From the NCBI GenBank assembly GCA_965216315.1, contig CBDCFN010000016.1, forward strand, positions 840,733-904,732: a DNA stretch of 64,000 nucleotides, in the 5' to 3' direction. The stretch comes from a bacterium. GTDB taxonomy: Bacteria > UBA10199 > 2-02-FULL-50-16 > JAJFLM01. Positions 10,541 through 50,802 of this stretch are shown here, one piece after another; within the stretch, counting starts at the first letter, position 1; each line of letters starts with the position of its first letter. The translations under genes were made by a program, and so were the position numbers. The notes beneath the pieces are model-generated. The model was given only the letters and a program-made list of their open reading frames with translations. It ran no database searches and was not told where the DNA came from.

Positions 10541-10565
10541 CAACTCTGGGCGATCCCCGTCGATA
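10541..10565 (+). promoter_or_regulatory. Putative sigma-28-like promoter CAAC-N15-TCGATA
   Basis: Recurrent bipartite motif with fixed spacing; -10 resembles the sigma-28 GCCGATAA box. Confidence 0.65.
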
Positions 10566-10580
10566 GAAATGCATCGGGTC

Positions 10581-11462
10581 ATGGTGCTACTCAACCTCCA
10601 TTCAGTGAAATTTGCTCAGGCCGCGGTGCTTGCGGGCAGTTCGGCCGCGCTGACACTTACCCAGGTCATGCACAATATCAATACGCGCCTCGGGCACATC
10701 GAGCGGACCCTGGCCACGGAGCCGAATGTCCTGGCCGTAAAGGGGATCCAGGAGGTGGTTGATAAGCACATGAGCTTTATCGCGGGGTTTGACCGCCAGC
10801 CCATCCATGTAGATGGTGAGATCGAACAAGATATTCGCGTCGATTTAGGCCGTTGGATTGACGGGATGATCCAGTTTAACGAATATTTTAAAGTGCAAGG
10901 TGATCTTGAAAGGGCGCGGTATGATTTCAGTATTATGCGCAAGCCTTTCGATGAGCTCCAAGTCCGTTTGCGCGATGCGGATTTTTCGGACGCGATAGTC
11001 ATAGAAGATGATGACATTGTTGAGGTCGATTCGTCCGAGCATGATATTTATATTTATGAAGAAGGCGATGAGGCGGACTTACATCGGGTTGCGGCGGGTC
11101 GGCGCCATCATCGGGCCGCACGTGCGCGTTATCTTTTTCCGCAAGAAGTGATTGATTTGCGTCAGTATAAAGATCGGGTGACCGTGGAGTATTTAATTGA
11201 AAAAATAATTAATCCACGGTTGGCGCTATTGTCAGAGGGGACGCATTTTATCATTGATGTTGAAGTCGATCGGCAGACACTGCAAAATATGGCGTGGGCC
11301 CTTTGGCAGCGCTATAAATTGTCGGCAACGGCGTTTGAAGATAAGGCACTTATTTTAAGACTTTCCTCACAAGGTCAGCAATGTCGCATCTATATTGACT
11401 CGACAAGTTCGCGTGGCAACTACCTGACGATGACACCAGAGGCCATTCCGATCCCGGAATAG
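10581..11462 (+). CDS. Orphan hypothetical protein, no signal peptide, with acidic linker
   Basis: ~293-aa ORF filling the intergenic space; ATG 10569 lies too close to the putative -10, so ATG 10581 is preferred. Confidence 0.75.
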   Translation: MVLLNLHSVKFAQAAVLAGSSAALTLTQVMHNINTRLGHIERTLATEPNVLAVKGIQEVVDKHMSFIAGFDRQPIHVDGEIEQDIRVDLGRWIDGMIQFNEYFKVQGDLERARYDFSIMRKPFDELQVRLRDADFSDAIVIEDDDIVEVDSSEHDIYIYEEGDEADLHRVAAGRRHHRAARARYLFPQEVIDLRQYKDRVTVEYLIEKIINPRLALLSEGTHFIIDVEVDRQTLQNMAWALWQRYKLSATAFEDKALILRLSSQGQQCRIYIDSTSSRGNYLTMTPEAIPIPE

Positions 11463-11507
11463 GGCTTTTCTTGCGAAATTTCGATAATTGACGCGGCGTT
11501 CAGGTCA

Positions 11508-11532
11508 CAACGGGAGCGAATCTTATCCGATA
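11508..11532 (+). promoter_or_regulatory. Putative sigma-28-like promoter CAAC-N15-CCGATA
   Basis: Exact motif, followed by AGGAGG RBS and GTG at 11551. Confidence 0.7.
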
Positions 11533-11550
11533 AGGGCTTAGGAGGTGACT

Positions 11551-12183
11551 GTGATTCTAACCAGTGGACTATCGCTTTGCGCACTGCCGGCCGCTATCTG
11601 TGCGGCGGCGCCCCCGCAAAATACGACCGTCAATGAGTCAATGAGTGTCGATGATGTACTGAGTGCAACGCAGGCCATTGATGCGGGGGCACCTATTGTT
11701 AGCCGGTCTGTGCGACACTACTATCGATTGCCGGCAGCGATTGATGAAAGCACCGGAATACTCGCCAATGCAATCACGGCCCTGAAAGCCACGCCATCTA
11801 ATGGGGAAGCTATATTGCGCTTTAGCGTTGGATCGGAGACTCTTGAGACTATCGCGGCCCACTTAAGAGATGTCTTTAGTATTCGCGCGGGAGAGATCGC
11901 GACTCCTTTAAAGGCAATGAGTGCCGGTCTCAACAGGTTATACCTGGATGTCATTAATGACTGGGCGGCTGCAAATAAGGATTATCCTGCGGTGTCACGG
12001 TTTCAGGCTCTCGCTCGACAGGTCGGTGATGAATGGGTATTTCATCTGAAGAATCACGAATTACCATCGGAGCCAAAGACGCTCGTCTTGCAGGCCTGGG
12101 GAGCCTATGACAATCAAAAACTGCTCAATGAGATTAGAATCCAGATTGGTGCTGTATCTCAAGACGCAGCGAGCCTCAATTAA
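11551..12183 (+). CDS. Orphan hypothetical protein
   Basis: ~210-aa ORF with AGGAGG (11540-11545) ahead of GTG 11551. Confidence 0.75.
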   Translation: MILTSGLSLCALPAAICAAAPPQNTTVNESMSVDDVLSATQAIDAGAPIVSRSVRHYYRLPAAIDESTGILANAITALKATPSNGEAILRFSVGSETLETIAAHLRDVFSIRAGEIATPLKAMSAGLNRLYLDVINDWAAANKDYPAVSRFQALARQVGDEWVFHLKNHELPSEPKTLVLQAWGAYDNQKLLNEIRIQIGAVSQDAASLN

Positions 12184-13369
12184 AGCGAATTTTTCTAAAC
12201 TTACGCTTGCCAACCTGACAAAGATAGGCGCCGGGAACCTTTAGTTGGGTTTTGACATCACTTACTTTCTTCTCATCAATACGAACACCGCCTTGTTCAA
12301 TCATTCGCCTTGATTCCGACTTGGATGCCGTCATGCCGGCCTCAGTGATGGCCTGAATGAGTGGATAGTTCGACTTCCCCGTCTCGATTGCAAATTCCTC
12401 GATTTCAGAAGGCAGCTGTTTGGCTGCAAAAATCTTTTCAAACTCCTGAACCGCGGCTTTGGCTGCAGCCTCATCGTGAAACCGCGCGGTTAATTCTTGG
12501 GCGAGTTGAGATTTGGCCGCTTTAGGGTGAAGGGTGCCGGCCGCGACGTCCTTTTTGAGCTGCTGTATTGCTTCGCCCGAGCGATCGGTGAGGAGCTCGA
12601 AGTAATTCCACATTAATTCATCGCTGATCGACATGACCTTGCCGTAGATTTCTCCCGGGGCCTCCTGGATACCGATGGCATTCCCATAAGACTTACTCAT
12701 CTTTTGAGCGCCGTCCGTTCCTACTAAGAGGGGGAGGGTCATAATGCATTGCGGTTCTTGATCGTAACGCTTCTGGATCGTGCGACCGGTAAGTAAATTG
12801 AAGAGTTGATCCGTGCCTCCCAATTCAATATCAGCTTTTAATACGACCGAATCGTAGGCCTGAATCAGCGGATAATAAAATTCCATGATGCTGATATCTT
12901 GTCCCTGGTCCATCCGCTTTTTGAAGTCATCGCGTTCCATCATTCGAGCGACCGTATGTTTAGAGCCTAAGGTGGCAAATTCAATGATAGACATCTTATC
13001 AAGCCATTCGGAGTTGTAACGAATTTCGGCCTTGTCGATGTCAACAACTTTGCCAGCCTGTTTGATATAGGTTTCGGCGTGCGCGCTAATTTCTGCTTCG
13101 GAGAGCATGGGGCGCGTTTCGCTTCGTCCGGTAGGGTCGCCGATCCGTGCGGTGAAGTCACCGACTAGAAATATGACTTGATGTCCCAATTGTTGAAGTT
13201 GGCGCAGTTTTTGTAAAAGGACGACATGCCCCAAGTGGAGGTCGGGTGCGGTGGGGTCGAAACCCGCCTTAATGCGTAGCGGCTTGTTGCGGTTCAGCTT
13301 TTTTTGAAGCTCGTCCTCAGAGATGATCTCTACGGTTCCGCGACGAATTATAGTTAGTGGTTCGGTCAT
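12176..13369 (-). CDS. tyrS: Tyrosine--tRNA ligase
   Basis: GFDPTAPDLHLGH, KMSKS, C-terminal S4 domain. Confidence 0.98.
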   Translation of the reverse strand: MTEPLTIIRRGTVEIISEDELQKKLNRNKPLRIKAGFDPTAPDLHLGHVVLLQKLRQLQQLGHQVIFLVGDFTARIGDPTGRSETRPMLSEAEISAHAETYIKQAGKVVDIDKAEIRYNSEWLDKMSIIEFATLGSKHTVARMMERDDFKKRMDQGQDISIMEFYYPLIQAYDSVVLKADIELGGTDQLFNLLTGRTIQKRYDQEPQCIMTLPLLVGTDGAQKMSKSYGNAIGIQEAPGEIYGKVMSISDELMWNYFELLTDRSGEAIQQLKKDVAAGTLHPKAAKSQLAQELTARFHDEAAAKAAVQEFEKIFAAKQLPSEIEEFAIETGKSNYPLIQAITEAGMTASKSESRRMIEQGGVRIDEKKVSDVKTQLKVPGAYLCQVGKRKFRKIRFN

Positions 13370-14148
13370 CAAATTGAAATATCGATACGTTCGATAGCCG
13401 TCGCCTGGCGAGTCATTTCATTGGCCTCGATAAGCACGGAGCAAAAACGCACATCGCCTGTGGCGACGATAAATTTTTCACGAAGATGACCGAAAAGGCG
13501 TTTGAGCGCAACATTTTTGTCCAGCCCAATGACCGACTCATAAGGCCCTGTCATGCCGATATCGCCAATGTAGGCGGTTCCACCGGGTAGGACTTGCGCA
13601 TCGGCGGTCGGAATGTGGGTGTGGGTTCCGACGACGCCGGTCACGCGCCCGTCACAGTGCCAGCCCATTCCTCGTTTCTCGGAGCTTGCTTCCGCGTGCA
13701 TATCGACGAGGATAATCTCGGCCTTGCCCTGCATTTTTTTAATTTCGCGGTCAACGGCACGAAAAGGGCAGTCCGTGCGGCCCATAAAGAGTTGCCCTTC
13801 GACGTTAATGATGCCGACCGGAACATCATTGCGCGCCGTGACGACGACGCTGCCCGCGCCGGGCTGTTCGGGCGGGTAGTTAGCAGGGCGGATCAGCTTT
13901 GGGTTTTCCGAGATATAGGACAGGATTGAACGCTGATCCCAGATATGATTTCCCGTCGTAATGACATCAACGCCATTTTTGAATAGTTCGTCACACATCT
14001 TAGGGGTAATGCCGCGCCCTCCGGCTGCGTTTTCACCATTGGCGACGACAAAATCAATATTTTGGTCTTGTATCAGTTGGGGGAGTACGCTTTTGACCGC
14101 ATTGCGGCCGGGTTCTCCAAAAATATCTCCGATTAATAGTAGTTTCAT
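13369..14148 (-). CDS. ymdB: YmdB-like metallophosphoesterase (TIGR00282)
   Basis: GDIFG, NGENAAGG, TTGNH, DMHAEASSEK, GTHTH. Confidence 0.93.
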   Translation of the reverse strand: MKLLLIGDIFGEPGRNAVKSVLPQLIQDQNIDFVVANGENAAGGRGITPKMCDELFKNGVDVITTGNHIWDQRSILSYISENPKLIRPANYPPEQPGAGSVVVTARNDVPVGIINVEGQLFMGRTDCPFRAVDREIKKMQGKAEIILVDMHAEASSEKRGMGWHCDGRVTGVVGTHTHIPTADAQVLPGGTAYIGDIGMTGPYESVIGLDKNVALKRLFGHLREKFIVATGDVRFCSVLIEANEMTRQATAIERIDISI

Positions 14149-14711
14149 AGGGTCTCAATGTGGCGTTTTTCGGTTATCACTTGGGCGCAGGGGACGTCAT
14201 GTGGTTCGATCGGCAACTGGTCGACAATTTGAAAGTCATACGCAAGGCCGCAACTTCGGTGAGTCACACCTGCTAATACGCGATCGTAGCCCCCATATCC
14301 ATAGCCGAGGCGATACCCTTGCTTGTCAAAGGAGACTCCTGGAATCAGGATGAAGTCGAGTTCCTGAACCGAAATCTCCGTGTCAGGATCAGGTTGCGGT
14401 TCACGTGTTCCCCAATTCTTTTTTTCTAATTGGGTGATATCGGTTGCTTTAAAAAAGCGAATGGCCAATTGATCCGGATCCCAATGCGGAAAAAAGACTT
14501 CCTTGCCTGACTTCATGGACAGTCGAATGATTTTGTTGGTTCGAACTTCGTTGCGGATGCCATCATAGACGGCAATTTTGCTGCTGTTCTTGAATTGATT
14601 CGATTCCAGCACGGCTTCTTGAATAAAATGGCTTAGGTTTCGAACCGTAGCGGCGTCAAGAGAAGTACGTTTTTTCAGGATCTGCTGTCGAATAGAGTCT
14701 TTATCTGCCAT
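14145..14711 (-). CDS. ygfA: 5-formyltetrahydrofolate cyclo-ligase
   Basis: IPGVSFDKQGYRLGYGYGGYDR, EPHD motifs; lies downstream of 6S RNA. Confidence 0.92.
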   Translation of the reverse strand: MADKDSIRQQILKKRTSLDAATVRNLSHFIQEAVLESNQFKNSSKIAVYDGIRNEVRTNKIIRLSMKSGKEVFFPHWDPDQLAIRFFKATDITQLEKKNWGTREPQPDPDTEISVQELDFILIPGVSFDKQGYRLGYGYGGYDRVLAGVTHRSCGLAYDFQIVDQLPIEPHDVPCAQVITEKRHIETL

Positions 14712-14721
14712 GCCTAAAAAT

Positions 14722-14915
14722 GCGTAATCCCCTGCCAATATGCCGTGTGGGAGGCGTCTTTAGAACCCCGTTTATCTAGGTGGAAATTTCATTACTGCTT
14801 TAGGCGTCCCGGAACGAAGTGCCGGGCAGGCACACCACAGTAAGCGGAAACTCCCGGGGTCTATGATAGGTCCTTAAAGCTAGCCACCAACTCACGAACA
14901 CGGAAGGGGATCCGC
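14722..14915 (-). ncRNA. ssrS: 6S RNA
   Basis: ~190 nt between zapA and ygfA (canonical synteny); complementary ends (GCGGATCCCCT.../...AGGGGATTACGC) and an internal hairpin. Confidence 0.85.
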
Positions 14916-14980
14916 GAAAGTCATACTAAATATTAAAAGATCTATAGTTGATAAAACGACCACAGGGCCCAAATGTCAAC

Positions 14981-15259
14981 CTAAAGCTGTAAGTCTACGA
15001 TCTCCAAAAGGTCTTGAAGTTTCTTTTCGGCAAGCAGCTTTTTGTCCTCATTTTTGTTCTGTTGGCTGATCAATTCATCGGCAATATTCATGCAGGCCAA
15101 AAGGGCGACGTTGAGGGAGGAGGCTGATTTCGCTTGGGTTTGAATTTCTCGGATCTTTTTGTTTACCAGGCTAGCGACCTGATTCACGTGCTTTTCCGTC
15201 GCATCGGTTTCGATGGAAAAGGTCTGATTCATTATCGATACTTGGAGTGCACTCTTCAT
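14981..15259 (-). CDS. zapA: Cell division protein ZapA
   Basis: VALLACMNIADEL motif, 92 aa, upstream of 6S RNA. Confidence 0.9.
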   Translation of the reverse strand: MKSALQVSIMNQTFSIETDATEKHVNQVASLVNKKIREIQTQAKSASSLNVALLACMNIADELISQQNKNEDKKLLAEKKLQDLLEIVDLQL

Positions 15260-15359
15260 GTGATGTGGAAGCTATCAAAGGTCATTTAGGCGAAAATGGC
15301 AAGTCGATTAAGCAGGGCCTGAAGAGAGGTAGGGTAAGTCCCTGTCTTAAAAAGATATT

Positions 15360-17129
15360 TCAGCTATCATCGGGGGGAGGTGCCATCTCAAGGTCAATCC
15401 AGCGCTTCTCCAAATCGACGCTGGCAATACGCACGTCGAGGGTATCCCCAATGCGGTAGTGCTTTTTCCGTCGCTTGCCGATCAGCGTGTGGGTTTCCTC
15501 GATAAAATGGTAATAATCATCATCCAGCTTGCGGATATGAAGCAGGCCCTCCACGAAAAAAGGAACGAGTTCTACGTAAAGGCCGAAGCGGGTGACTCCC
15601 GAAACGACGCCCGGGCAGCAGGTACCGATTCGGTCCGTCATGAAGGCGGCCTGCATCAGGCTGCGGACGGCCCATTCGGCCTGCATGGCAATGCGTTCTC
15701 GCAAGGAGCATTGCTCAGCCATTTGATCGAGCCGTCTCAGGTTGGTTTTGCCGTCTTTTTTCTGCTCAAGCAGGGCCCCGAGCGTCCGATGCACCATGAG
15801 ATCGGGATAACGCCGGATGGGCGACGTGAAGTGGGTGTAGCAGGTTGAGGCGAGGCCAAAGTGCCCCCTGTTCTCAATGCTGTAGATAGCCTTGGCGAGC
15901 GAACGCAGTAACAACGTGTTGATCATGCGGCTCTCGGGGCGGTCAGCCGCCTTTGCAATGATTTGCGCCAATGCTTTCGGTTCCAGCCGCTTTTTAGGGA
16001 TTTTGAGGGCATAGCCAATATTGTGCAGCGTTGCTTGCAGCTCTTTGATGTTGTCGCGGCTGGGCTCTTCGTGGATACGGTAGATCATGGCGGATTCTTG
16101 TTCGGTAATGAAAGTAGCGACGGCTTCATTGGCCGCGATCATGAATTCCTCGATCATCATATGGGCTTCGGTTCGCTTGGACTTGACGATAGAATCAATG
16201 GTGCCTTCTTCAAGATTCATAATGATAACGGGTTCCGGCAGGTCAAAATCCAGGCTGCCTCGATCGAGGCGGCATTTGCGGAGCCGCTTGAACAGCGTAT
16301 GCATAAGTTCCAGGTGAGGCAGTATGTGTCGAAGCTTGTGTCGTGTCGCTTCGTCTTTGTCTACCAGCGCACTTGCAACTTCGGTGTAAGTGAGTCGATG
16401 GTGATTGCGGATAATGCTCCGATAAAAATCTGTGTGAAGGATCTTTCCGGTGCGATCAAAGTCTATTTCGGCCGTAAAAGTCAGTCTATCTTTGTGCGGC
16501 ACGAGAGAACAAATATCGTTTGATAATTTTTCCGGTAACATCGGGAGGACGCGCTCAGGAAAATAAACGCTTGTGCCGCGTCCATAGGCCTCTTTGTCAA
16601 TGCGGCTTCCGGGGGCGACATAGTAGCTTACATCCGCGATGGAGACGCGGAGACGGATGCGATTCTGACCGATATCCTCGACAGCAATGGCATCATCAAA
16701 ATCTTTGGCCGTTTCCCCATCTATGGTTACGGTGATTTGACTGCGTAAATCCGTACGTCGTTGGATTTCTTCTTTGTCAATGGAATCGGATATTTCGGCG
16801 GCTTCGGCCAACACGGCTTCAGGGAATTTTTTTGGCAGCTGAAACTCTTCTATGATTGAATCCATGTGCTCTGCGAGAACTTCTGCGATATCGTCAGTCT
16901 TTTGTTCGATCTGATCGGTTTGTTCTCTTTTCTCAGTAGGGTAAGCGAAGCGTTTGCCTCGATGGGTTGCGATCAAAGTCCCTTGTTTGACAAGTGTCTT
17001 AAGATGGAGGCGTAGTTTTCTTTTTTCCGGGAGTGGAACTTTCAGAAAGCGCGCCAGTTCTGATACGGTAAAAAAGGTGTCGGGATGTGCTTGAAGCCAT
17101 GAAAGGGCACGGTCATGCTGTGAAGCCAT
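15360..17129 (-). CDS. rnr: RNase R/RNase II family exoribonuclease (short form)
   Basis: TIDGETAKDFDDA, IEEFMIAANE, YTHFTSPIRRYPDL, C-terminal S1 domain, N-terminal HTH-like segment. Confidence 0.88.
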   Translation of the reverse strand: MASQHDRALSWLQAHPDTFFTVSELARFLKVPLPEKRKLRLHLKTLVKQGTLIATHRGKRFAYPTEKREQTDQIEQKTDDIAEVLAEHMDSIIEEFQLPKKFPEAVLAEAAEISDSIDKEEIQRRTDLRSQITVTIDGETAKDFDDAIAVEDIGQNRIRLRVSIADVSYYVAPGSRIDKEAYGRGTSVYFPERVLPMLPEKLSNDICSLVPHKDRLTFTAEIDFDRTGKILHTDFYRSIIRNHHRLTYTEVASALVDKDEATRHKLRHILPHLELMHTLFKRLRKCRLDRGSLDFDLPEPVIIMNLEEGTIDSIVKSKRTEAHMMIEEFMIAANEAVATFITEQESAMIYRIHEEPSRDNIKELQATLHNIGYALKIPKKRLEPKALAQIIAKAADRPESRMINTLLLRSLAKAIYSIENRGHFGLASTCYTHFTSPIRRYPDLMVHRTLGALLEQKKDGKTNLRRLDQMAEQCSLRERIAMQAEWAVRSLMQAAFMTDRIGTCCPGVVSGVTRFGLYVELVPFFVEGLLHIRKLDDDYYHFIEETHTLIGKRRKKHYRIGDTLDVRIASVDLEKRWIDLEMAPPPDDS

Positions 17130-17139
17130 AATAGTTGCC

Positions 17140-18600
17140 TTACCAATGCAAAAGACGACGCCACTGGCTTCGTGACGTGGTCATTACAAAATAGAGGATT
17201 AAACTAGGTATTCCCGCGCTGAAAATCACCAGCACAGGACTAAGATCGCGCATGATGTTTTTCAGTAAGTAAATAGCGATTCCGCTGGCAATACCAGCAA
17301 AGATAATTTGAACTGTATGGGCTGTCATGAAGTCTTTACTGTGGAGGCGGAATGTTTGAATGATTGAAATAATCATGATCAATGAATATCCACTGCTGAT
17401 GCTCACGGCAGCACCAAAGACGCCGTAAGCAGGAACAACAATGATTCCAGTGATTGTGACGGCTGCTAAGATGAGCAGCTCAGCCAATAGGAAAAACCGT
17501 GATCGTTGAGTTGTGACGAGAAAGAACATCAGGACAGAAAACGTCGAATACATGAATTGCCCGATCAAAAGAGCCAGGAAAGTATTATAGGACAGCAGTG
17601 AAGCATCCTTGCCGATCATCAGCATAATTTCAGGGCCGAAGGCGCCGAGAAAGAGGGCGAAGGCGATGTTGAGGAGCAATAGCTTTTCCATGGCAAAGCG
17701 CATTTGGCCCCACATTTCGCCTTTATCGTTGCGCAAGTAGGACTCCGAGGTGACTGGCACAAAGATGGGGCCGAAGGCATTTTTAGTCTGCGTGATGACG
17801 CGAGCAATTTGTTTGGCAAAGCCGTAAACGCCGACGACTTTCATCTGAGTTGGAGTTCCTGTTCCCAGGAAGAAAGTAACCAGAAAAATATCAATTCGGT
17901 AGAGCGTCGCATCTACAACTTCGATGATGTACATCGGTAGTGCATAACGAATGATCGCAAAGTAACGTCCCGGGCGGCGCCAGGTACGGAAAACTTCACG
18001 CCAGGAGAAAAACTTGCGAAATGTGAAGGCGCTCAGGATTACGACAATGAGCAGAGCCACGCCTTGGGCGAGGATGACTCCATAGGGCTTAAGCGGCGTT
18101 TTCCAGAATACAAAGAGCAATAGCAGCATCGCCGTCGGTTCAATGGCACTTCGGATGATGGCGTGGTATTTCATCTCCTTGAGGCCCATGGTGGCCTGGA
18201 TCAGCAGGACGCCAACATTATATAGGGGGATGATAGGTGCCAGGATGTACAAGCTGTTTCGAATCAGTGGCGTGTCGACAAAAATATAAGTGTAGAGGAT
18301 GAGAGCGACGGCTCCTAGAGTTGAGACGGTGAGGCAGGCCTTTAAGCTGGAGGCGATCTTTTGATAGAGCTTTCGTGTTTCACCCGTATTTTTAAAATGA
18401 GCGAGCTCAAAGAGCATGCCGTGTTCGAGGCCGAGCATGCCATAGCGGTTTAGAAGTTCGGCAGAGGCCCAGGCGACCGTATAAACTCCGAATAATTCAG
18501 TCCCATAAAGTAGTGCGGCGACAACGAAGAAACCGGTGCGGCTAAAACGGAAGACGTTACCAATGATATTAATTTTAATACCGCGAATCAGTTCCTGCAT
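17140..18600 (-). CDS. Polysaccharide/oligosaccharide flippase (MOP superfamily)
   Basis: 486 aa, many hydrophobic segments, FGVY...GMLGL and VGVYGFA patterns typical of Wzx-like flippases. Confidence 0.7.
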   Translation of the reverse strand: MQELIRGIKINIIGNVFRFSRTGFFVVAALLYGTELFGVYTVAWASAELLNRYGMLGLEHGMLFELAHFKNTGETRKLYQKIASSLKACLTVSTLGAVALILYTYIFVDTPLIRNSLYILAPIIPLYNVGVLLIQATMGLKEMKYHAIIRSAIEPTAMLLLLFVFWKTPLKPYGVILAQGVALLIVVILSAFTFRKFFSWREVFRTWRRPGRYFAIIRYALPMYIIEVVDATLYRIDIFLVTFFLGTGTPTQMKVVGVYGFAKQIARVITQTKNAFGPIFVPVTSESYLRNDKGEMWGQMRFAMEKLLLLNIAFALFLGAFGPEIMLMIGKDASLLSYNTFLALLIGQFMYSTFSVLMFFLVTTQRSRFFLLAELLILAAVTITGIIVVPAYGVFGAAVSISSGYSLIMIISIIQTFRLHSKDFMTAHTVQIIFAGIASGIAIYLLKNIMRDLSPVLVIFSAGIPSLILYFVMTTSRSQWRRLLHW

Positions 18601-18613
18601 GTGGGGTCAGTTC

Positions 18614-20551
18614 TTAGGCCTTAGGAGGGGTGACGTCAAGGATGGGCAGATAGACCTCAAAAATTGTCTTGCCCGGTCGACTATCGACACGAACAAAGCC
18701 ACCTCGTTGGCTGACCAAATGGCGCAAATTGGTTAGGCCGAGGCCTAAGTGGCCGGTCGCCGCTGTAAACGAGTAGCGTGGCTTGGTGGTATAAAAAGGG
18801 TCGAAAAGGAGATGCCATTGGTCGCGGGGTATTCCGGGGCCGCTATCTTGGACGACAAACTTAACATATTCGCCGGGCTGAGCCGCTGAAAAGCTCAAGT
18901 TTACTTCCAGCGAAGCGAGCGAATCCGTTGTAATCGTCCGCCGTGAGGTCCGGACCCAGATGCGGCCGCGATCACCTTCTGGGATGGCTTCGTAGGCATT
19001 TTCCAGCATGATGAAGTAAAGCTGCTGAATTTCCTCGACAGGTCCCCTGATTGGAATGGGATTGTCATCCAGCTCAAAGGTAAGATCTGCGGCGTATCGG
19101 ATGCGCTGGGGAACGGCCTCCGGGGTAAGGAGGTCATGTAGATTAAGGGGCGTGCCATCGGTCGATCCGTCTGTCAGGCCCGGGAGCCTGTTGAAGACTG
19201 TCTGAATTTGTTCAAGTTCATGTTTGAGCTCTTCGAGGGTAGTGATTTCAAGTTGTGGCGTGCGCCTCTCCCCTTGACGTCCCAAGGTGTTTATCTTGTG
19301 TTGTAAATCCTCAATGATTTCTAGTAGTGCCCGGCTGACTTGATGCTCGTGGTCGCGAATGACACTTAAGAAGGATTGGGCGCGATGAACTTGTAATAAC
19401 TGTTTCTCAGTTTGAACGCGTATGCCCGCATTTGTATAAACGACCATGGCGTATTGTTTGTCTCCGGCCAAGCTGGGATGAGCCTGAATATCAACTTGGA
19501 CAGTGCTACCATCTTTGCATATCATTTCTGCACCTCTCCAGTGAAACATGCCGGTGTTAACGAACGCGTCGATATGCTCCTTTAATTTAGGGCGAGTGGC
19601 TTCAGGGAAAAATGTTTCAAGAGGACTCTGAATCATCTCGTCATGCGTGTACCCTAAGAGGCGCTCAAGTGATTGGCTGCTCAGGATGGCGCGAGGGATC
19701 AGTTCGTAATCGGCTGTTTCATCAAGCACGAAGATAGATAGCGGTTGGAAGGAATTCTTGAGTAGCTCTTGGTAGCGTTGAATTTCTGCAAGGGCGCGTT
19801 GTCTTTCCGTTTGATCAAATAGGACATAATAGCCGATGCGTCGCCCTTCACGTCCGAATGGAAGGGTGGCGACGTGGATGTCGGCCCATAAATAGCTGCC
19901 GTCTTCTTTAAGGAGACGGACATTTTCAATGAAGCCGACGCCGTTCGCAACAACTCCCATGATGAATTCACCAAAACGGGCAAGGTCTGTCGGATGCACG
20001 TTCTTGGAGATGGTTTCCATCGACGTCAGATAGCCGGCTTCAAAGCCGGATGTACTGTCGTTGGCCGGATTCGTTTCGATTAAGCGAACCATGTCATCGG
20101 GTGTTGCGGCCGCTGGGTTTAATTCAAATACACCCATGGGATGAGGAAAAGGCTTGATGACATCTGACAGTAAAGAGACGATTTTTTCATATTCGGGATC
20201 TGCTGTGCTTTGTTGCGTTGCGTTTCCCCAGCGCCGTTGAAGCAAGCTGTAAAGACGTTTTGTTTCGTCATCGGCTTGTTCGATGCGGGGTGCTAAGCCG
20301 TTGACGACCTGACGCAGAGCCGTCTCAAAACTTACGGTATCATTGTAGGTATCGACGCCGGCATGATTTTCAACAAGAACATGAATGGGTTGGACGATCG
20401 GTGCGAGCACCGCGTCTTGATTCGCGAGTTGAATCGGGTGAGCGAGTCCCCGCAGGAGAACCCCCGCTGAGGTACCGAGAGTCAAACTCGCATCTGTTAC
20501 CACGAGTTGTTGGATGACTCCATTGATGATTGGAATATTTGGTACGACCAC
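18614..20551 (-). CDS. PAS-PAS-HATPase sensor-kinase-like protein with degenerate H-box and orphan N-terminus
   Basis: PAS/PAC motifs (KEDGSYLW, LLGYTHDEM, CKDGSTVQV); ENAYEA, DSGPGI, FDPFYTTK, GLGL boxes; start reassigned to GTG 20551 (AAGGGG RBS, promoter motif upstream). Confidence 0.8.
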   Translation of the reverse strand: MVVPNIPIINGVIQQLVVTDASLTLGTSAGVLLRGLAHPIQLANQDAVLAPIVQPIHVLVENHAGVDTYNDTVSFETALRQVVNGLAPRIEQADDETKRLYSLLQRRWGNATQQSTADPEYEKIVSLLSDVIKPFPHPMGVFELNPAAATPDDMVRLIETNPANDSTSGFEAGYLTSMETISKNVHPTDLARFGEFIMGVVANGVGFIENVRLLKEDGSYLWADIHVATLPFGREGRRIGYYVLFDQTERQRALAEIQRYQELLKNSFQPLSIFVLDETADYELIPRAILSSQSLERLLGYTHDEMIQSPLETFFPEATRPKLKEHIDAFVNTGMFHWRGAEMICKDGSTVQVDIQAHPSLAGDKQYAMVVYTNAGIRVQTEKQLLQVHRAQSFLSVIRDHEHQVSRALLEIIEDLQHKINTLGRQGERRTPQLEITTLEELKHELEQIQTVFNRLPGLTDGSTDGTPLNLHDLLTPEAVPQRIRYAADLTFELDDNPIPIRGPVEEIQQLYFIMLENAYEAIPEGDRGRIWVRTSRRTITTDSLASLEVNLSFSAAQPGEYVKFVVQDSGPGIPRDQWHLLFDPFYTTKPRYSFTAATGHLGLGLTNLRHLVSQRGGFVRVDSRPGKTIFEVYLPILDVTPPKA

Positions 20552-20573
20552 ACCCGACCCCTTGCGAGAGGGG

Positions 20574-20598
20574 CATCGGATAGTTGCCAAAAAGGTTG
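20574..20598 (-). promoter_or_regulatory. Putative sigma-28-like promoter CAAC-N15-CCGATG
   Basis: Reverse strand reads CAAC-ctttttggcaactat-CCGATG, just upstream of GTG 20551. Confidence 0.65.
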
Positions 20599-20713
20599 TG
20601 GGTTTTATGCCAACGAGGGCTTGTTCCATAACTAATTGATCTAAAATGTGTTTTTGGCCATGTCGGGGTGATCGTTCTTGCCATCAGCTCGATGCTGTGC
20701 TTGGATGCGGCTC

Positions 20714-29026: not shown

Positions 29027-30205
29027 CTAGATCGTCCATAAGTTCTGCCGACGCAGGGCGTCGACCGCTTCAGTCAGACCGCTGACGCTGAGTGGAAACA
29101 TTTTAAATATCTTGCCGATTTCATCAATCGTGGGGTGGTGCCAATAATGTTCCGGTTCGGGATTGAGCCAGACTGAGAGTGGATAATGCTGATGGAGGCG
29201 TTTGAGCCATTCAATGCCCGGAGTATCCTCATGAGACCAATAGTCGATGTTGCCGCCGGCAAAGAAGAGTTCGTAGGGATTCATGCAGGCGTCCCCAACG
29301 ATGATCACGTAATGTGTTTTGCGGTAGCGGCGAAATAACTCATCAACGGAAATGGCGTTACGCCGATATATGTCGGTATAGACCGAAGAATAAATGCAGT
29401 TATGGAAATAGTAGGAGTGAAAGGCTTTAAAATGGTTGGATGCATGGGCTGCGGAAAATAGAGCTTCGGCCATATGGGCATACATATCCATGCTACCGCC
29501 GGCATCCATCAGAAGAAGTAGCTCTGTTTGGTTCTTGCGAGGTGGGGCAAAGACGAGCTCGATGTCGCCGGCATTACGGCAGGTCTTGTCGATGGTGGCC
29601 TCCATTTGCAGTTCTTCCGGAAGGCCGATACGATCGAGCTTGCGCAACCGTTTGAGAGCCACCTTTAACTGCCGTGTATCGAGGATGCGATCATTGCGGT
29701 AGTTTTTAAAACGCCTTTCTTCAGCTACTTGGACGGCGGAACGCCCGCCACCAGGCCCTCCAATGCGGATTCCGGAAGGGTGGGCCCCTGAATGTCCAAA
29801 AGGTGACGTTCCTCCCGTGCCAATCCAATGGTTGCCGCCATGGTGTTCTTCCAGCTGCTCTTTAAGCCGCTCGAGAAAACGGCGGCGCAATTCTTCCAGG
29901 TCTAGCTTTTCCAGACCGGGAGGTAATTGCGGACGCTGAGCCGGGTCGACCATGCGATTGAGCCAATCTAACAACTCTTCCTTGATGTTAATGGATTCTT
30001 CGCCCTTGAAGCAGACGAGAAAAGCCTGGTCGAAGGCATCGTAGAGCGCTTCCGACTTCACGAGGATAGCGCGCGCTAAGTAATAAAACCGGGTAAGCGA
30101 GGATGCGGCCAAGTCCTGGCTCAGGGCCTCCATAAGAGTGACCCATTCTTGGGTGCCGACGGGAATCTTATGGGCGCGGAGGGTATATAAGAAGGGGATA
30201 AACAT
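29027..30205 (-). CDS. VWA-domain CoxE-like protein
   Basis: WIGTGGTSPFGHSG, LLMDAGGSM MIDAS, YYFHNC, VGDACM, WLNP. Confidence 0.88.
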   Translation of the reverse strand: MFIPFLYTLRAHKIPVGTQEWVTLMEALSQDLAASSLTRFYYLARAILVKSEALYDAFDQAFLVCFKGEESINIKEELLDWLNRMVDPAQRPQLPPGLEKLDLEELRRRFLERLKEQLEEHHGGNHWIGTGGTSPFGHSGAHPSGIRIGGPGGGRSAVQVAEERRFKNYRNDRILDTRQLKVALKRLRKLDRIGLPEELQMEATIDKTCRNAGDIELVFAPPRKNQTELLLLMDAGGSMDMYAHMAEALFSAAHASNHFKAFHSYYFHNCIYSSVYTDIYRRNAISVDELFRRYRKTHYVIIVGDACMNPYELFFAGGNIDYWSHEDTPGIEWLKRLHQHYPLSVWLNPEPEHYWHHPTIDEIGKIFKMFPLSVSGLTEAVDALRRQNLWTI

Positions 30206-31636: not shown

Positions 31637-31712
31637 CAACTAAACAGTCTTCAGTGCCGATATATCATTTTAGATATAATTGGGCTAGACGAGGTATATC
31701 ACTAATGATATA
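31637..31712 (+). promoter_or_regulatory. CAAC-N16-CCGATA motif plus two TATATC...GATATA operator-like palindromes
   Basis: TATATCATTTTAGATATA (31661-31678) and TATATCACTAATGATATA (31695-31712) upstream of the HTH gene. Confidence 0.55.
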
Positions 31713-31721
31713 TAATTATCA

Positions 31722-32093
31722 ATGGCAGCACACAAGAGCGAGATAGAATTTGATACATTGTTAGGGACTGCACGTTTTGTGGCGGATTTCCGTATTCCTG
31801 CCGCTGCAAGAGAAGTTATTGAAAAAAGCATCGCAAAGGCTTTTGAGGATTATATTCCCGCGAGTGAAGTGCAGAAGAAAATCAAAAAAGATATTGATTG
31901 GGTTGATACGCCCAGAGGGGCACTGGTTGTATTTATGACGGCTCAAGGATTGACTCAAAAGAAACTCGCTAAAAAAACCGGGATTAATCAACCGAATATA
32001 TCTGCGATGGTTAATGGGCGCCGCCCTATTACAGTGAAGACCGCGAAGTTGTTAGGGAAGGCGTTTGGGGTGAGTCATAAGTTGTTTCTTTGA
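31722..32093 (+). CDS. XRE/HigA-like helix-turn-helix protein
   Basis: GLTQKKLAKKTGINQPNISAMVNGRRPITVKTAKLLGKAF. Confidence 0.85.
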   Translation: MAAHKSEIEFDTLLGTARFVADFRIPAAAREVIEKSIAKAFEDYIPASEVQKKIKKDIDWVDTPRGALVVFMTAQGLTQKKLAKKTGINQPNISAMVNGRRPITVKTAKLLGKAFGVSHKLFL

Positions 32094-49746: not shown

Positions 49747-50802
49747 ATGGCACAGGCACAGACGATACCCGCAGATTTTCTTGAAATGAATGACTTGATG
49801 CAGGTCTTCTTGGAACGGGTGCAGGCCGATATGGCGGCATTGAGTGAAAGTTCCGCGGAGGCCTTCCAAGGGCTTAAGGAAAACGTGCTTAAGTCGTGGG
49901 AAAAACTTCCTACAGTGATCAATGATTATAAGCGGTCGATGCAAAACATGCCGTGGGAACTGCGACAACGTCGTTTTATCAAGGGGCTTTCCAAAGATAT
50001 TGAAGCCTTTGAGCAGGATGTCAGGCGTTATGTCGCTGAATTAAAGGAAGCAAAGCTAGCGGATGTCTACCGCAAAGCTCTGTACTCGCGGACACGACGC
50101 CTGGCTGAACGCATTGCTGAGTTGGAAAATCACAACCTGTTTCAAAAGTTCTTAAAGGGCGAAGTGATTCTGGCCAGTAAGAAATCCATTCAGTGGGGCC
50201 GCAAGTTTGCGCATGCGGCCTTGGGGATGGCGTTTCTCTATATTTTTATCTATTCGGGATTTCCGCAAACAGTTATCTGGTCGATAGCGGGTGCTTATTT
50301 GATTTGGTCCTTTTCGCTGGAGACGGCACGTCACATGAACCCTCGGATCAATGAGTGGGTGTGTAAGGCCTTTCGACCGATAATGCGAGAACGCGAGAAG
50401 ACGCGGGTTAACTCGGCCATCTTCTACAGTATCTCGATGGCGATTGTGTATTTCGGTTTTCCGACCGAAGTGACCGTGTTGACGATGCTGTTTATTGCAT
50501 TGGGCGACCCCGCCGCGGGTATTGTCGGTATCTACTGGGGGCGGAAAAAACTGACGCAGCATTCAAGTCTCGAAGGCTCCTTGGCATGCTTTGCTGTTTG
50601 CGCCCTTTCGGCCGCTATCTGTGGGGCTTTTCTTTTTGAGGTGTCACTCGGCTTTTTTCCGCTCGTTCTTTTCGCCGGGCTCTGTGGGCTCGTTGGGGCG
50701 GTCGCGGAGACCTCCTTTAAAAAATTCGATGATAATCTTGTCATGCCGCTCCTATCGGCGCCGGCCCTCTGGGTGTTGATGCAGGTTTTCGGTATTATCT
50801 AG
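49747..50802 (+). CDS. Phytol/dolichol (polyprenol) kinase-family membrane protein with soluble N-terminal extension
   Basis: RKFAH, LGDPAAGIVG..WGR, SLEGSLA, DDNLVMP. Confidence 0.8.
   Translation: MAQAQTIPADFLEMNDLMQVFLERVQADMAALSESSAEAFQGLKENVLKSWEKLPTVINDYKRSMQNMPWELRQRRFIKGLSKDIEAFEQDVRRYVAELKEAKLADVYRKALYSRTRRLAERIAELENHNLFQKFLKGEVILASKKSIQWGRKFAHAALGMAFLYIFIYSGFPQTVIWSIAGAYLIWSFSLETARHMNPRINEWVCKAFRPIMREREKTRVNSAIFYSISMAIVYFGFPTEVTVLTMLFIALGDPAAGIVGIYWGRKKLTQHSSLEGSLACFAVCALSAAICGAFLFEVSLGFFPLVLFAGLCGLVGAVAETSFKKFDDNLVMPLLSAPALWVLMQVFGII

Follow-up and report, generated by a model that had tools for sequence, protein, structure and literature searches.

Why do two genes that are controlled by the same promoter motif encode proteins with similar N-termini, and is this similarity that of a shared protein module? 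The question arises in a bacterial stretch of 64,000 nucleotides (nt), contig CBDCFN010000016.1 of GenBank assembly GCA_965216315.1, positions 840,733 to 904,732 of the forward strand. We refer to this whole stretch as the window and count positions from its first letter. Gene A (10581..11462, + strand) encodes a lineage-restricted protein of 293 amino acids (aa) and gene B (18614..20551, − strand) a protein of 645 aa which starts with the GTG at 20551. In the initial annotation a common N-terminal module of about 45 residues was proposed for these two otherwise different proteins, fused to different C-terminal cargo as in secreted effectors. We found that A and B share the class features of one large regulon: a sigma-28-type promoter and a nearly uncharged, Ser/Leu/Ala-rich leader of about 25 residues at the start of the protein. 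The proteins themselves are probably unrelated, each with a small family of its own, and are unlikely to share a homologous 45-residue module. What is new here is the leader with its regulon and not the claimed module.

Promoters and start codons

The promoters of A and B belong to the FliA/sigma-28-type class with the form CAAC-N15/16-[CT]CGATA. The site of A (CAAC-N15-TCGATA, 10541..10565, + strand) is one mismatch away from the CCGATA core and the site of B (CAAC-N15-CCGATG, 20574..20598, − strand) lies inside the longest open reading frame (ORF) of that gene. In the window the exact motif occurred six times compared to an expectation of 0.53, and none of 100 shuffles reached six. Across the whole genome of the window (G000; 2.96 Mb, 98% complete) we counted 86 exact sites, with a clear optimum of the spacer length: 60 sites at N15, 26 at N16 and 4-19 at other lengths. 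The −10 variants found at A and B were also frequent, with 66 sites for TCGATA and 41 for CCGATG compared to 4-34 for scrambled controls. The extended consensus reads cGCAACtTT...g[CT]CGATAa and the site of A fits it. All 93 genomes of the phylum are enriched in the motif, typically with 20-80 sites versus 0-6 for the reversed control (60 versus 2 in G000). The −10 half of the motif is the sigma-28 consensus GCCGATAA given in the available part of PMC12784957, whereas the −35 element is CAAC here and TAAA in enterobacterial sigma-28 promoters.

The longest ORF holding A runs from 10569 to 11462 (+ strand, 297 aa) and the longest ORF holding B from 18614 to 20629 (− strand, 671 aa). The initial annotation had moved both starts downstream, to 10581 and 20551, and these reassignments as well as both promoters are backed by the starts of orthologues and by the promoter spacing. 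For B the coding score in frame is positive only below ~20550, and the orthologues in two other genomes of the phylum (G010 and G074) start with a Met that is aligned to the GTG at 20551. The promoter of B ends 22 nt before this GTG with the ribosome-binding word AAGGGG in between, and in the G074 orthologue CAAC-N15-TCGATG precedes the ATG by 19 nt. For A the coding score in frame is positive from about 10569 onward. Its relatives P0003 and P0005 (described below) start at the position equivalent to ATG 10581, and the homologue of A in a genome of the same family (G002) shows CAAC-N15-GCGATA 15 nt before its ATG, which is the same spacing as that from TCGATA to ATG 10581. The upstream ATG 10569 is located just 3 nt past the −10 hexamer of the A promoter. 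According to the accessible sections of PMC12784957 the −10 element GCCGATAA of the sigma-28 open complex spans −15 to −8, so transcription of A is expected to begin 9 nt past the hexamer, at about 10574, which excludes ATG 10569 as a start codon. The distance of the proposed module from the new starts (beginning at residue 22 of A and residue 21 of B) had been read as independent support for them. The residue numbers are right, the argument itself is circular.

The G010 orthologue of B (L006, G010:C5 320-407) has kept the −35 half of the promoter (GCAACCTTTT), followed by TCGAAG as −10 region at a distance of ~60 nt from the ATG. The promoter of this orthologue may have decayed or moved.

An uncharged leader in the products of the regulon

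The regulon set was derived from 234 sites of the relaxed motif, from which 85 genes were kept and 149 were dropped. A site qualified if its ORF was at least 90 aa long, had a coding score above 10 and started no more than 60 nt away; sites deep in longer coding frames were excluded. The controls were 1037 genes of which the starts were set by a Shine-Dalgarno-like word. For 40 of the 85 regulon genes the start codon is located 5-12 nt past the −10 element with a mode of 8, examples in the window being the starts at 11545, 31124 and 60773. Their start codons thus coincide with the predicted transcription starts, and these 40 genes would give leaderless mRNAs. Such mRNAs seem to be the norm for promoters of this class.

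The products of these genes are depleted of charge at their N-termini. Across positions 2-25 we observed a mean of 2.58 charged residues for the 85 regulon proteins and of 1.62 for the 40 leaderless genes compared to 4.90 for the 1037 controls (Mann-Whitney p=1.7e-13). If we define the leader as at most one charged residue at these positions and no Sec-like core, it is found in 37 of the 85 regulon proteins versus 64 of the 1037 controls (odds ratio 11.7, p=1.7e-19), and in 26 of the 40 leaderless genes versus 11 of the 45 genes with longer mRNA leaders. The charged fraction stays between 0.05 and 0.08 through residue 25 and rises again to ~0.18 over residues 26-31, which gives the leader a defined length. 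Relative to the controls Ser is enriched 1.46-fold, Pro 1.25-fold, Leu 1.18-fold, Thr 1.17-fold and Ala 1.15-fold, whereas D, E, K and R are reduced to 0.46-0.65 of their control frequency. In A the leader covers residues 2-25 (10584..10655, + strand) and in B likewise residues 2-25 (20477..20548, − strand), each with one charged residue in 24. Counted by eye over the same residues, P0003, P0005 and the G002 copy of A contain 0, 1 and 0 charged residues, respectively, and the B orthologues one each.

Signal peptides of the Sec type do not account for this pattern. K and R, at 0.46 and 0.65 of the control frequency, are depleted, and the hydrophobic maximum over 15 residues is only 1.35 for A and 1.26 for B. 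Among the 85 regulon proteins it reaches 2.0 in only nine and remains below 2.0 in the other 76.

The bias of the leader is visible in the codons. The purine fraction at codon position 2 is 0.32 within the leader compared to 0.47 further in; the corresponding values at position 3 are 0.47 and 0.42. In addition, the annotated frame is the best-scoring frame over codons 3-25 in 37 of the 40 leaderless genes. The bias at position 2 together with the frame scores indicates that the leader is translated and that selection acts on the protein. The frame scores also bear on the idea that the N-terminal stretches are not translated at all, that the real starts lie further downstream and that the module and the leader are merely 5' untranslated sequence read as protein. 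The public gene call did use other starts for both genes (10569 and 20629), which speaks for this idea. However, both segments have a positive in-frame coding score, the charged fraction of ~7% is well below the ~20% expected for a random translation (our own estimate from codon counts) and the protein sequence of both N-termini is conserved in the relatives from other genomes. We therefore regard untranslated stretches as extremely improbable.

The control set contains no leaderless genes from outside the regulon. When the leaders were searched for a positional motif by Gibbs sampling, the result was 8.9 bits over 10 columns with scattered positions; as there is no positional motif we describe the leader as compositional. 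In G090, a genome of a distant family, the leader was not seen (16 ORFs with an average of 4.9 charged residues). In G002, a genome of the same family as the window, the leader was seen again: the 18 ORFs averaged 2.94 charged residues and the six leaderless ones 1.33. The leader may therefore be a family- or order-level trait.

The regulon is rich in orphans: outside the window 34 genes have an exact motif, and 23 of them are without a Pfam family. The other exact-motif genes include a subtilase, a protein of the endonuclease/phosphatase family, a GNAT protein and an FGE-sulfatase-like protein. One further exact-motif gene (L046, G000:C16:91477-94470) encodes a 998-aa protein in which a ResIII/DEAD helicase domain is combined with sigma-70 region 4.

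Pairwise comparison of the N-terminal segments

The residues on which the proposed module was based are encoded at the positions given for them. The segment of A (10644..10769, + strand) translates into 42 aa from AALTL and corresponds to residues 22-63, comprising the tail of the leader and a predicted helical hairpin. The segment of B (20363..20491, − strand) translates into 43 aa from ASLTL and corresponds to residues 21-63, within an N-terminal region that is conserved only in the small family of B. The ~14 identities counted by eye are real as well: MAFFT aligned slightly longer segments with 16 identities in 56 columns and a semi-global alignment of residues 21-66 contains 14.

The significance of these identities depends on the measure. 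With BLASTP, in a single comparison of A and B, the alignment in question obtained 13.9 bits and an E-value of 11. The Smith-Waterman score of the two segments was 27 compared to 20.5 ± 4.2 for shuffled sequences, and 8.8% of 5000 shuffles scored as high. For longer N-terminal parts (100 x 120 aa) the score was 39 (p=0.028) and for the full proteins we obtained p=0.41. At the DNA level we detected no similarity between A and B, with p=0.21 for the local score relative to codon shuffles and only words of 7-9 nt in blastn.

Two results weigh in favour of the proposed module and against our conclusion. The first is the number of identities when the two N-termini are anchored at their starts: we observed 14 over residues 21-66 compared to 6.0 ± 3.1 in shuffles, a count that was reached by 0.67% of 3000 shuffles, although this p=0.007 is uncorrected for the fact that the pair was picked by eye among several proteins. 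The anchored alignment score was reached by 2.3% of the shuffles. The second is that both segments are predicted as helix-loop-helix, at low pLDDT. The single-sequence AlphaFold2 models had a mean pLDDT of 48.5 for A and 43.1 for residues 1-290 of B and were too poor for a comparison. In the model of A the helices span residues 30-50 and 55-75 (numbered from 10569), and the 10-residue blocks covering them have pLDDT values of 36-67.

To allow for the choice of the pair we used an empirical null which consists of all 3570 pairs among the N-termini of the 85 candidate motif-controlled proteins of the genome. The local score of A and B was reached by 57 of these pairs, the anchored score by 31 and the anchored identity count by 18 (the top 0.5%). 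The next-best partners of A scored 38, 37 and 36, and B has a better partner than A with a score of 40. Thus, once the choice of the pair is allowed for, the similarity is not beyond chance. When a hidden Markov model built from the two segments was run against the six-frame translated genome it retrieved no third member (the next match had E=5), and phmmer searches of the genome with either N-terminus retrieved just the protein itself and never the other one.

Relatives and family profiles

Protein A matched no Pfam or NCBIfam family and a search of the ESM Atlas gave no usable match. Word-based searches of 5.8e9 proteins with A and with residues 1-290 of B returned the query proteins only. 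In a library of 1.84e9 proteins we found two relatives of A, P0003 (E=1.3e-7) and P0005, each of 265 aa and aligned over the full length. A profile search of the 5.8e9 proteins with this family recovered A, P0003 and P0005 only, and in G002 the profile identified a homologue which is syntenic and adjoins tyrS as in the window. The A family hence consists of four members (A, P0003, P0005 and the G002 locus) of 265-293 aa. When its profile was searched against the PDB we obtained just weak matches of the coiled-coil type with a best E-value of 0.016. The model of protein A shows, at low confidence, N-terminal helices followed by an acidic linker and a C-terminal alpha/beta domain.

P0004 (1009 aa, E=5.7e-5 to residues 53-136 of A) was excluded from the family as a low-complexity helical match in a repetitive, Ala/Glu/Leu-rich protein. 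The G002 homologue (L049, G002:C75 1450-2250) contains an in-frame TGA at 1771-1773 and may be a broken gene, two genes or the result of a sequencing error. Unlike in the window, there is no 212-aa orphan between this homologue and tyrS.

Judged from its domain matches, protein B is a soluble-looking sensor histidine kinase in which two PAS-like regions are combined with a histidine-kinase ATPase domain. The Pfam matches PAS_3 (48 bits) and HATPase_c (53 bits) are both above their cut-offs and PAS_9 was also matched. Sensor-kinase families of NCBIfam were matched partly and all below their cut-offs, and Pfam reported no HisKA family at E<=0.1. We saw no membrane segment in protein B. Its N-terminal region (~140 aa, 20132..20551, − strand) is helical and matches no known family. 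For residues 1-145 all leads in the ESM Atlas scored below 0.9, and a profile search of the PDB with the N-terminus gave nothing (best E=0.3). Residues 34-140 match a 681-aa frame in G010 and the resulting profile adds G074, so that the region is kept in 3 of the 93 phylum genomes. The orthologues in G010 and G074 extend into a C-terminus that looks receiver-like by eye. A scan of the genome contigs with the B-family profile found just the G074 locus already known, and scans of metagenome contigs with the profiles of both families gave no matches.

These families allowed a comparison of A and B that does not depend on the two sequences alone. The three-member profile of the B family scored A at −0.1 bits with hmmsearch. 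With hhalign the B-family profile matched A with a probability of 0.11% and in a different register, and the two families matched each other with 0.07% (3 x 3 sequences) and 0.06% (4 x 3 sequences), the best stretch being outside the N-terminus; as the profiles hold just 3-4 sequences, very remote kinship may escape them. The shared residues are also not those which the families conserve. Only 4 of the 16 identities between A and B are kept in both B orthologues. Over the stretch A matches 4 of the 13 invariant residues of the B family, all of them Leu or Ala, and misses G52, R60, P65, Q67, P77 and E87 among others. Within the A family only one column of the module is invariant, again a Leu, and the G002 copy does not have AxLTL. 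None of the landmark residues (AxLTL, L[GA]H and [KN]H) is conserved within the A family or within the B family.

Because the profiles of the relatives do not match and the identities between A and B are not the conserved residues, we judge the segments to be non-homologous, and the claim of a common module on different cargo does not hold. The AxLTL at residues 21-26 represents the end of the charge-free leader in both proteins, and the remaining identities are located in predicted helices rich in Leu, Ala and Val and do not exceed chance.

The alternative is a homologous but highly diverged module at residues ~21-65, for example a chaperone-binding or targeting domain. Type III chaperone-binding domains follow directly after the secretion signal and are usually defined by structure and partner. 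The segments lie about where such domains are located, they begin equally far from the corrected starts, both are predicted to form two helices joined by a short loop, the anchored count of 14 identities in 46 positions is unusual and the genome encodes a type III system. Set against this are the pairwise scores and the missing third member in the genome, the profile comparison in other registers, the poor conservation of the shared residues including the absence of AxLTL in G002 and the selection of the pair by eye. Unlike known chaperone-binding domains the two segments show no detectable homology, and no small chaperone-like gene flanks A or B, which is a weak test as chaperones may be encoded elsewhere. 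Overall we consider a diverged homologous module very improbable.

A shared module would have defined a new targeting domain. What the analysis yielded in its place are corrected starts for two genes, small families for two apparent orphans and a statistically strong leader that marks the regulon.

Sigma factor and type III secretion cluster

We found a single FliA/WhiG-like sigma factor in the genome, and its gene is located in a type III secretion cluster (G000:C16:339083-360514) outside the window. This gene (C16:350511-351410) encodes 299 aa and its best family is FliA_WhiG with 133 bits, below the cut-off of 189.6 bits. Other proteins of the sigma-70 family that were found are one RpoH and one match in a 591-aa frame, which is taken as RpoD. 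From family resemblance alone we infer that the sigma factor encoded in the cluster would read the CAAC-N15-CCGATA motif.

The sigma gene is placed between SctJ and the homologues of SctL/N/O/P/Q/R/S/T. Apart from FHIPEP/SctV (787 bits) the cluster contains an FHA/YscD-like (SctD-like) protein, SctJ, SctL, SctN, a YscO-like protein (SctO), a FliK-like protein (SctP), a FliM/FliN-like protein (SctQ), FliO and homologues of FliP, FliQ and FliR (SctR, SctS and SctT). A secretin gene lies outside the cluster at C16:974670. In this 98%-complete genome we found neither flagellin nor rod proteins. Across the phylum FHIPEP is present in 91 of the 93 genomes and flagellin in 11. No FlgM-like anti-sigma factor was identified, and the small neighbouring ORFs match no family.

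Promoter sites of the GCGATA type occur at C16:347332 and 360554, inside or at the end of the cluster. One of the two is just upstream of a 183-aa ORF without a family match.

A candidate export signal

What could the leader be for? The most likely role, which we put forward tentatively, is that of a recognition signal for type III export. The FliA-like sigma factor encoded in the cluster would drive the late genes of the regulon, and the leader would be the signal by which the late sigma-28-dependent products are handed to the export apparatus. The logic would be that of the flagellar FliA, in which the expression of late substrates is coupled to a working export gate. In the flagellar FliA-FlgM checkpoint a sigma factor of the FliA type is tied to the type III export apparatus and drives the genes of late products. 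The sigma factor described here is also genetically tied to a type III apparatus; unlike in the checkpoint, we identified no FlgM-like anti-sigma factor and found no filament or rod genes. The full scenario, in which the sigma factor of a non-flagellar type III cluster drives dozens of mostly leaderless and mostly orphan genes, the leaders serve as export signal and A and B are themselves exported cargo, is possible and we regard it as doubtful.

Known type III signals occupy the first ~25 residues, are enriched in Ser, Thr and Pro and depleted of acidic and alkaline residues, as far as the available part of Arnold et al. 2009 (PMC2669295) describes them. The length of the leader, the increase in Ser, Thr and Pro and the decrease in both kinds of charged residues match this description. 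An export role is plausible because of this match in composition, the orphan-rich cargo and the presence of the sigma gene and two promoter-like sites in the secretion cluster. With regard to the secreted-effector architecture proposed in the initial annotation, the type III system is indeed encoded and A and B do have an N-terminal class feature in common, whereas the homologous 45-aa domain did not stand.

Several observations speak against an export signal. Leu (1.18-fold) and Ala (1.15-fold) are enriched in the leader, whereas the accessible portion of PMC2669295 reports them as depleted in known type III signals. For P. syringae the consulted part of PMC3338616 gives three rules: Ser makes up more than 10% of residues 1-50, position 3 or 4 is aliphatic or Pro, and residues 1-12 include no acidic one. 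Jointly these three rules were not enriched in the regulon (5 of 85 versus 48 of 1037 controls, p=0.59); A and B pass the second and the third rule, but residues 1-50 contain only 3 Ser in A and 2 in B. The SctP/FliK-like ruler, which is the sole recognisable canonical substrate, has 7 charged residues in positions 2-25. B as a cytoplasmic-looking PAS histidine kinase would be unusual cargo. Also to be counted against an export signal are the G090 ORFs with their usual charge, the scattered positions from the Gibbs sampling and the control set, which has no leaderless genes.

Alternatively, the leader is real and not a type III signal. It could then serve in envelope association, as the signal of another export route, as a regulatory or degradation handle or as a requirement of leaderless translation. 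Such a role would agree with the Leu/Ala enrichment, the ruler without a leader, the P. syringae rules, the histidine kinase among the cargo and the concentration of the effect in the leaderless genes, and also with the absence of the leader in G090, which has both the promoter and FHIPEP. On the other hand, codon position 2 shows the bias and the synonymous position 3 does not, which speaks against a cause that acts on the mRNA alone. The depletion of K and R and the low hydrophobic maxima exclude signals of the Sec type for most of the proteins. The length of 25 residues and the depletion of acidic and alkaline residues fit the type III window as published (PMC2669295, available part), and the sigma gene is located inside a type III cluster. 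A role of the leader outside type III export is therefore possible, if somewhat improbable.

If the leader is an export signal, as we tentatively favour, candidate substrates would be flagged by their promoter and by a sharp boundary at 25 residues, and would provide a clean set for testing which features the export gate recognises. There is continuing debate about the nature of type III secretion signals. The regulon would in this case be an arsenal of effectors defined by its promoter, with a secretion signal that is unusually easy to read. For a phylum that has been seen in metagenomes only, this would also point to a host- or prey-directed lifestyle.

Comparison with described systems

The leader resembles signals of the EffectiveT3 type, as characterised in the part of PMC2669295 available, in that it covers the first ~25 residues, is unconserved in sequence, precedes unrelated and often orphan cargo and is accompanied by an apparatus in the same genome. 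It differs from them in that the depletion of charge is much sharper here and ends abruptly at residue ~26.

The closest described parallel to the regulon is that of FliA in Bdellovibrio bacteriovorus. In the accessible part of Karunker et al. 2013 (PMC3627812) the motif TTAAG-N16-CCGATA is found in 92 of 140 attack-phase promoters, and as in the window a promoter ending in CCGATA controls many non-flagellar, uncharacterised genes. There are also clear differences to what that part of PMC3627812 describes. The −35 element is CAAC(TTT) here with a spacer of 15-16 nt, and our genome is without flagellin or rod genes. Moreover, the sigma gene is located in a type III cluster, many transcripts appear to be leaderless and the products have a leader in common. 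In the literature we searched we found nothing relevant on a type III system linked to sigma-28 in a candidate phylum.

Neighbouring genes and further motif sites

Gene A is flanked by a carboxyltransferase gene and by an orphan gene of 212 aa (11545..12183, + strand) which belongs to the same regulon. The motif scan placed an exact motif upstream of this orphan at 11508..11532 (+ strand); its start is 12 nt past the −10 element and the protein has no charged residues in positions 2-25. Gene B is flanked by the genes of a flippase-like membrane protein and a DUF4197 protein.

Elsewhere in the window, exact motifs at 29344-29368 (+ strand) and 50753-50778 (− strand) are followed by ORFs of at best 71 and 70 aa, respectively, with negative coding scores. 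These promoters might drive small RNAs or very small proteins. An exact motif with the N16 spacer (31637-31662, + strand) lies ~60 nt upstream of a gene for a 123-aa HTH_3 (Xre-type) regulator (31722-32093, + strand).

Outside the window, G000:C16:2164750-2185676 contains about ten promoter sites which are spaced 1.3-3.7 kb apart (most of them 1.3-2.8 kb). Their extended −35 regions are near-identical and read CAACTTTCGCAA or CAACTCTTGCGAA, and the region looks like an array of paralogous motif-controlled genes.

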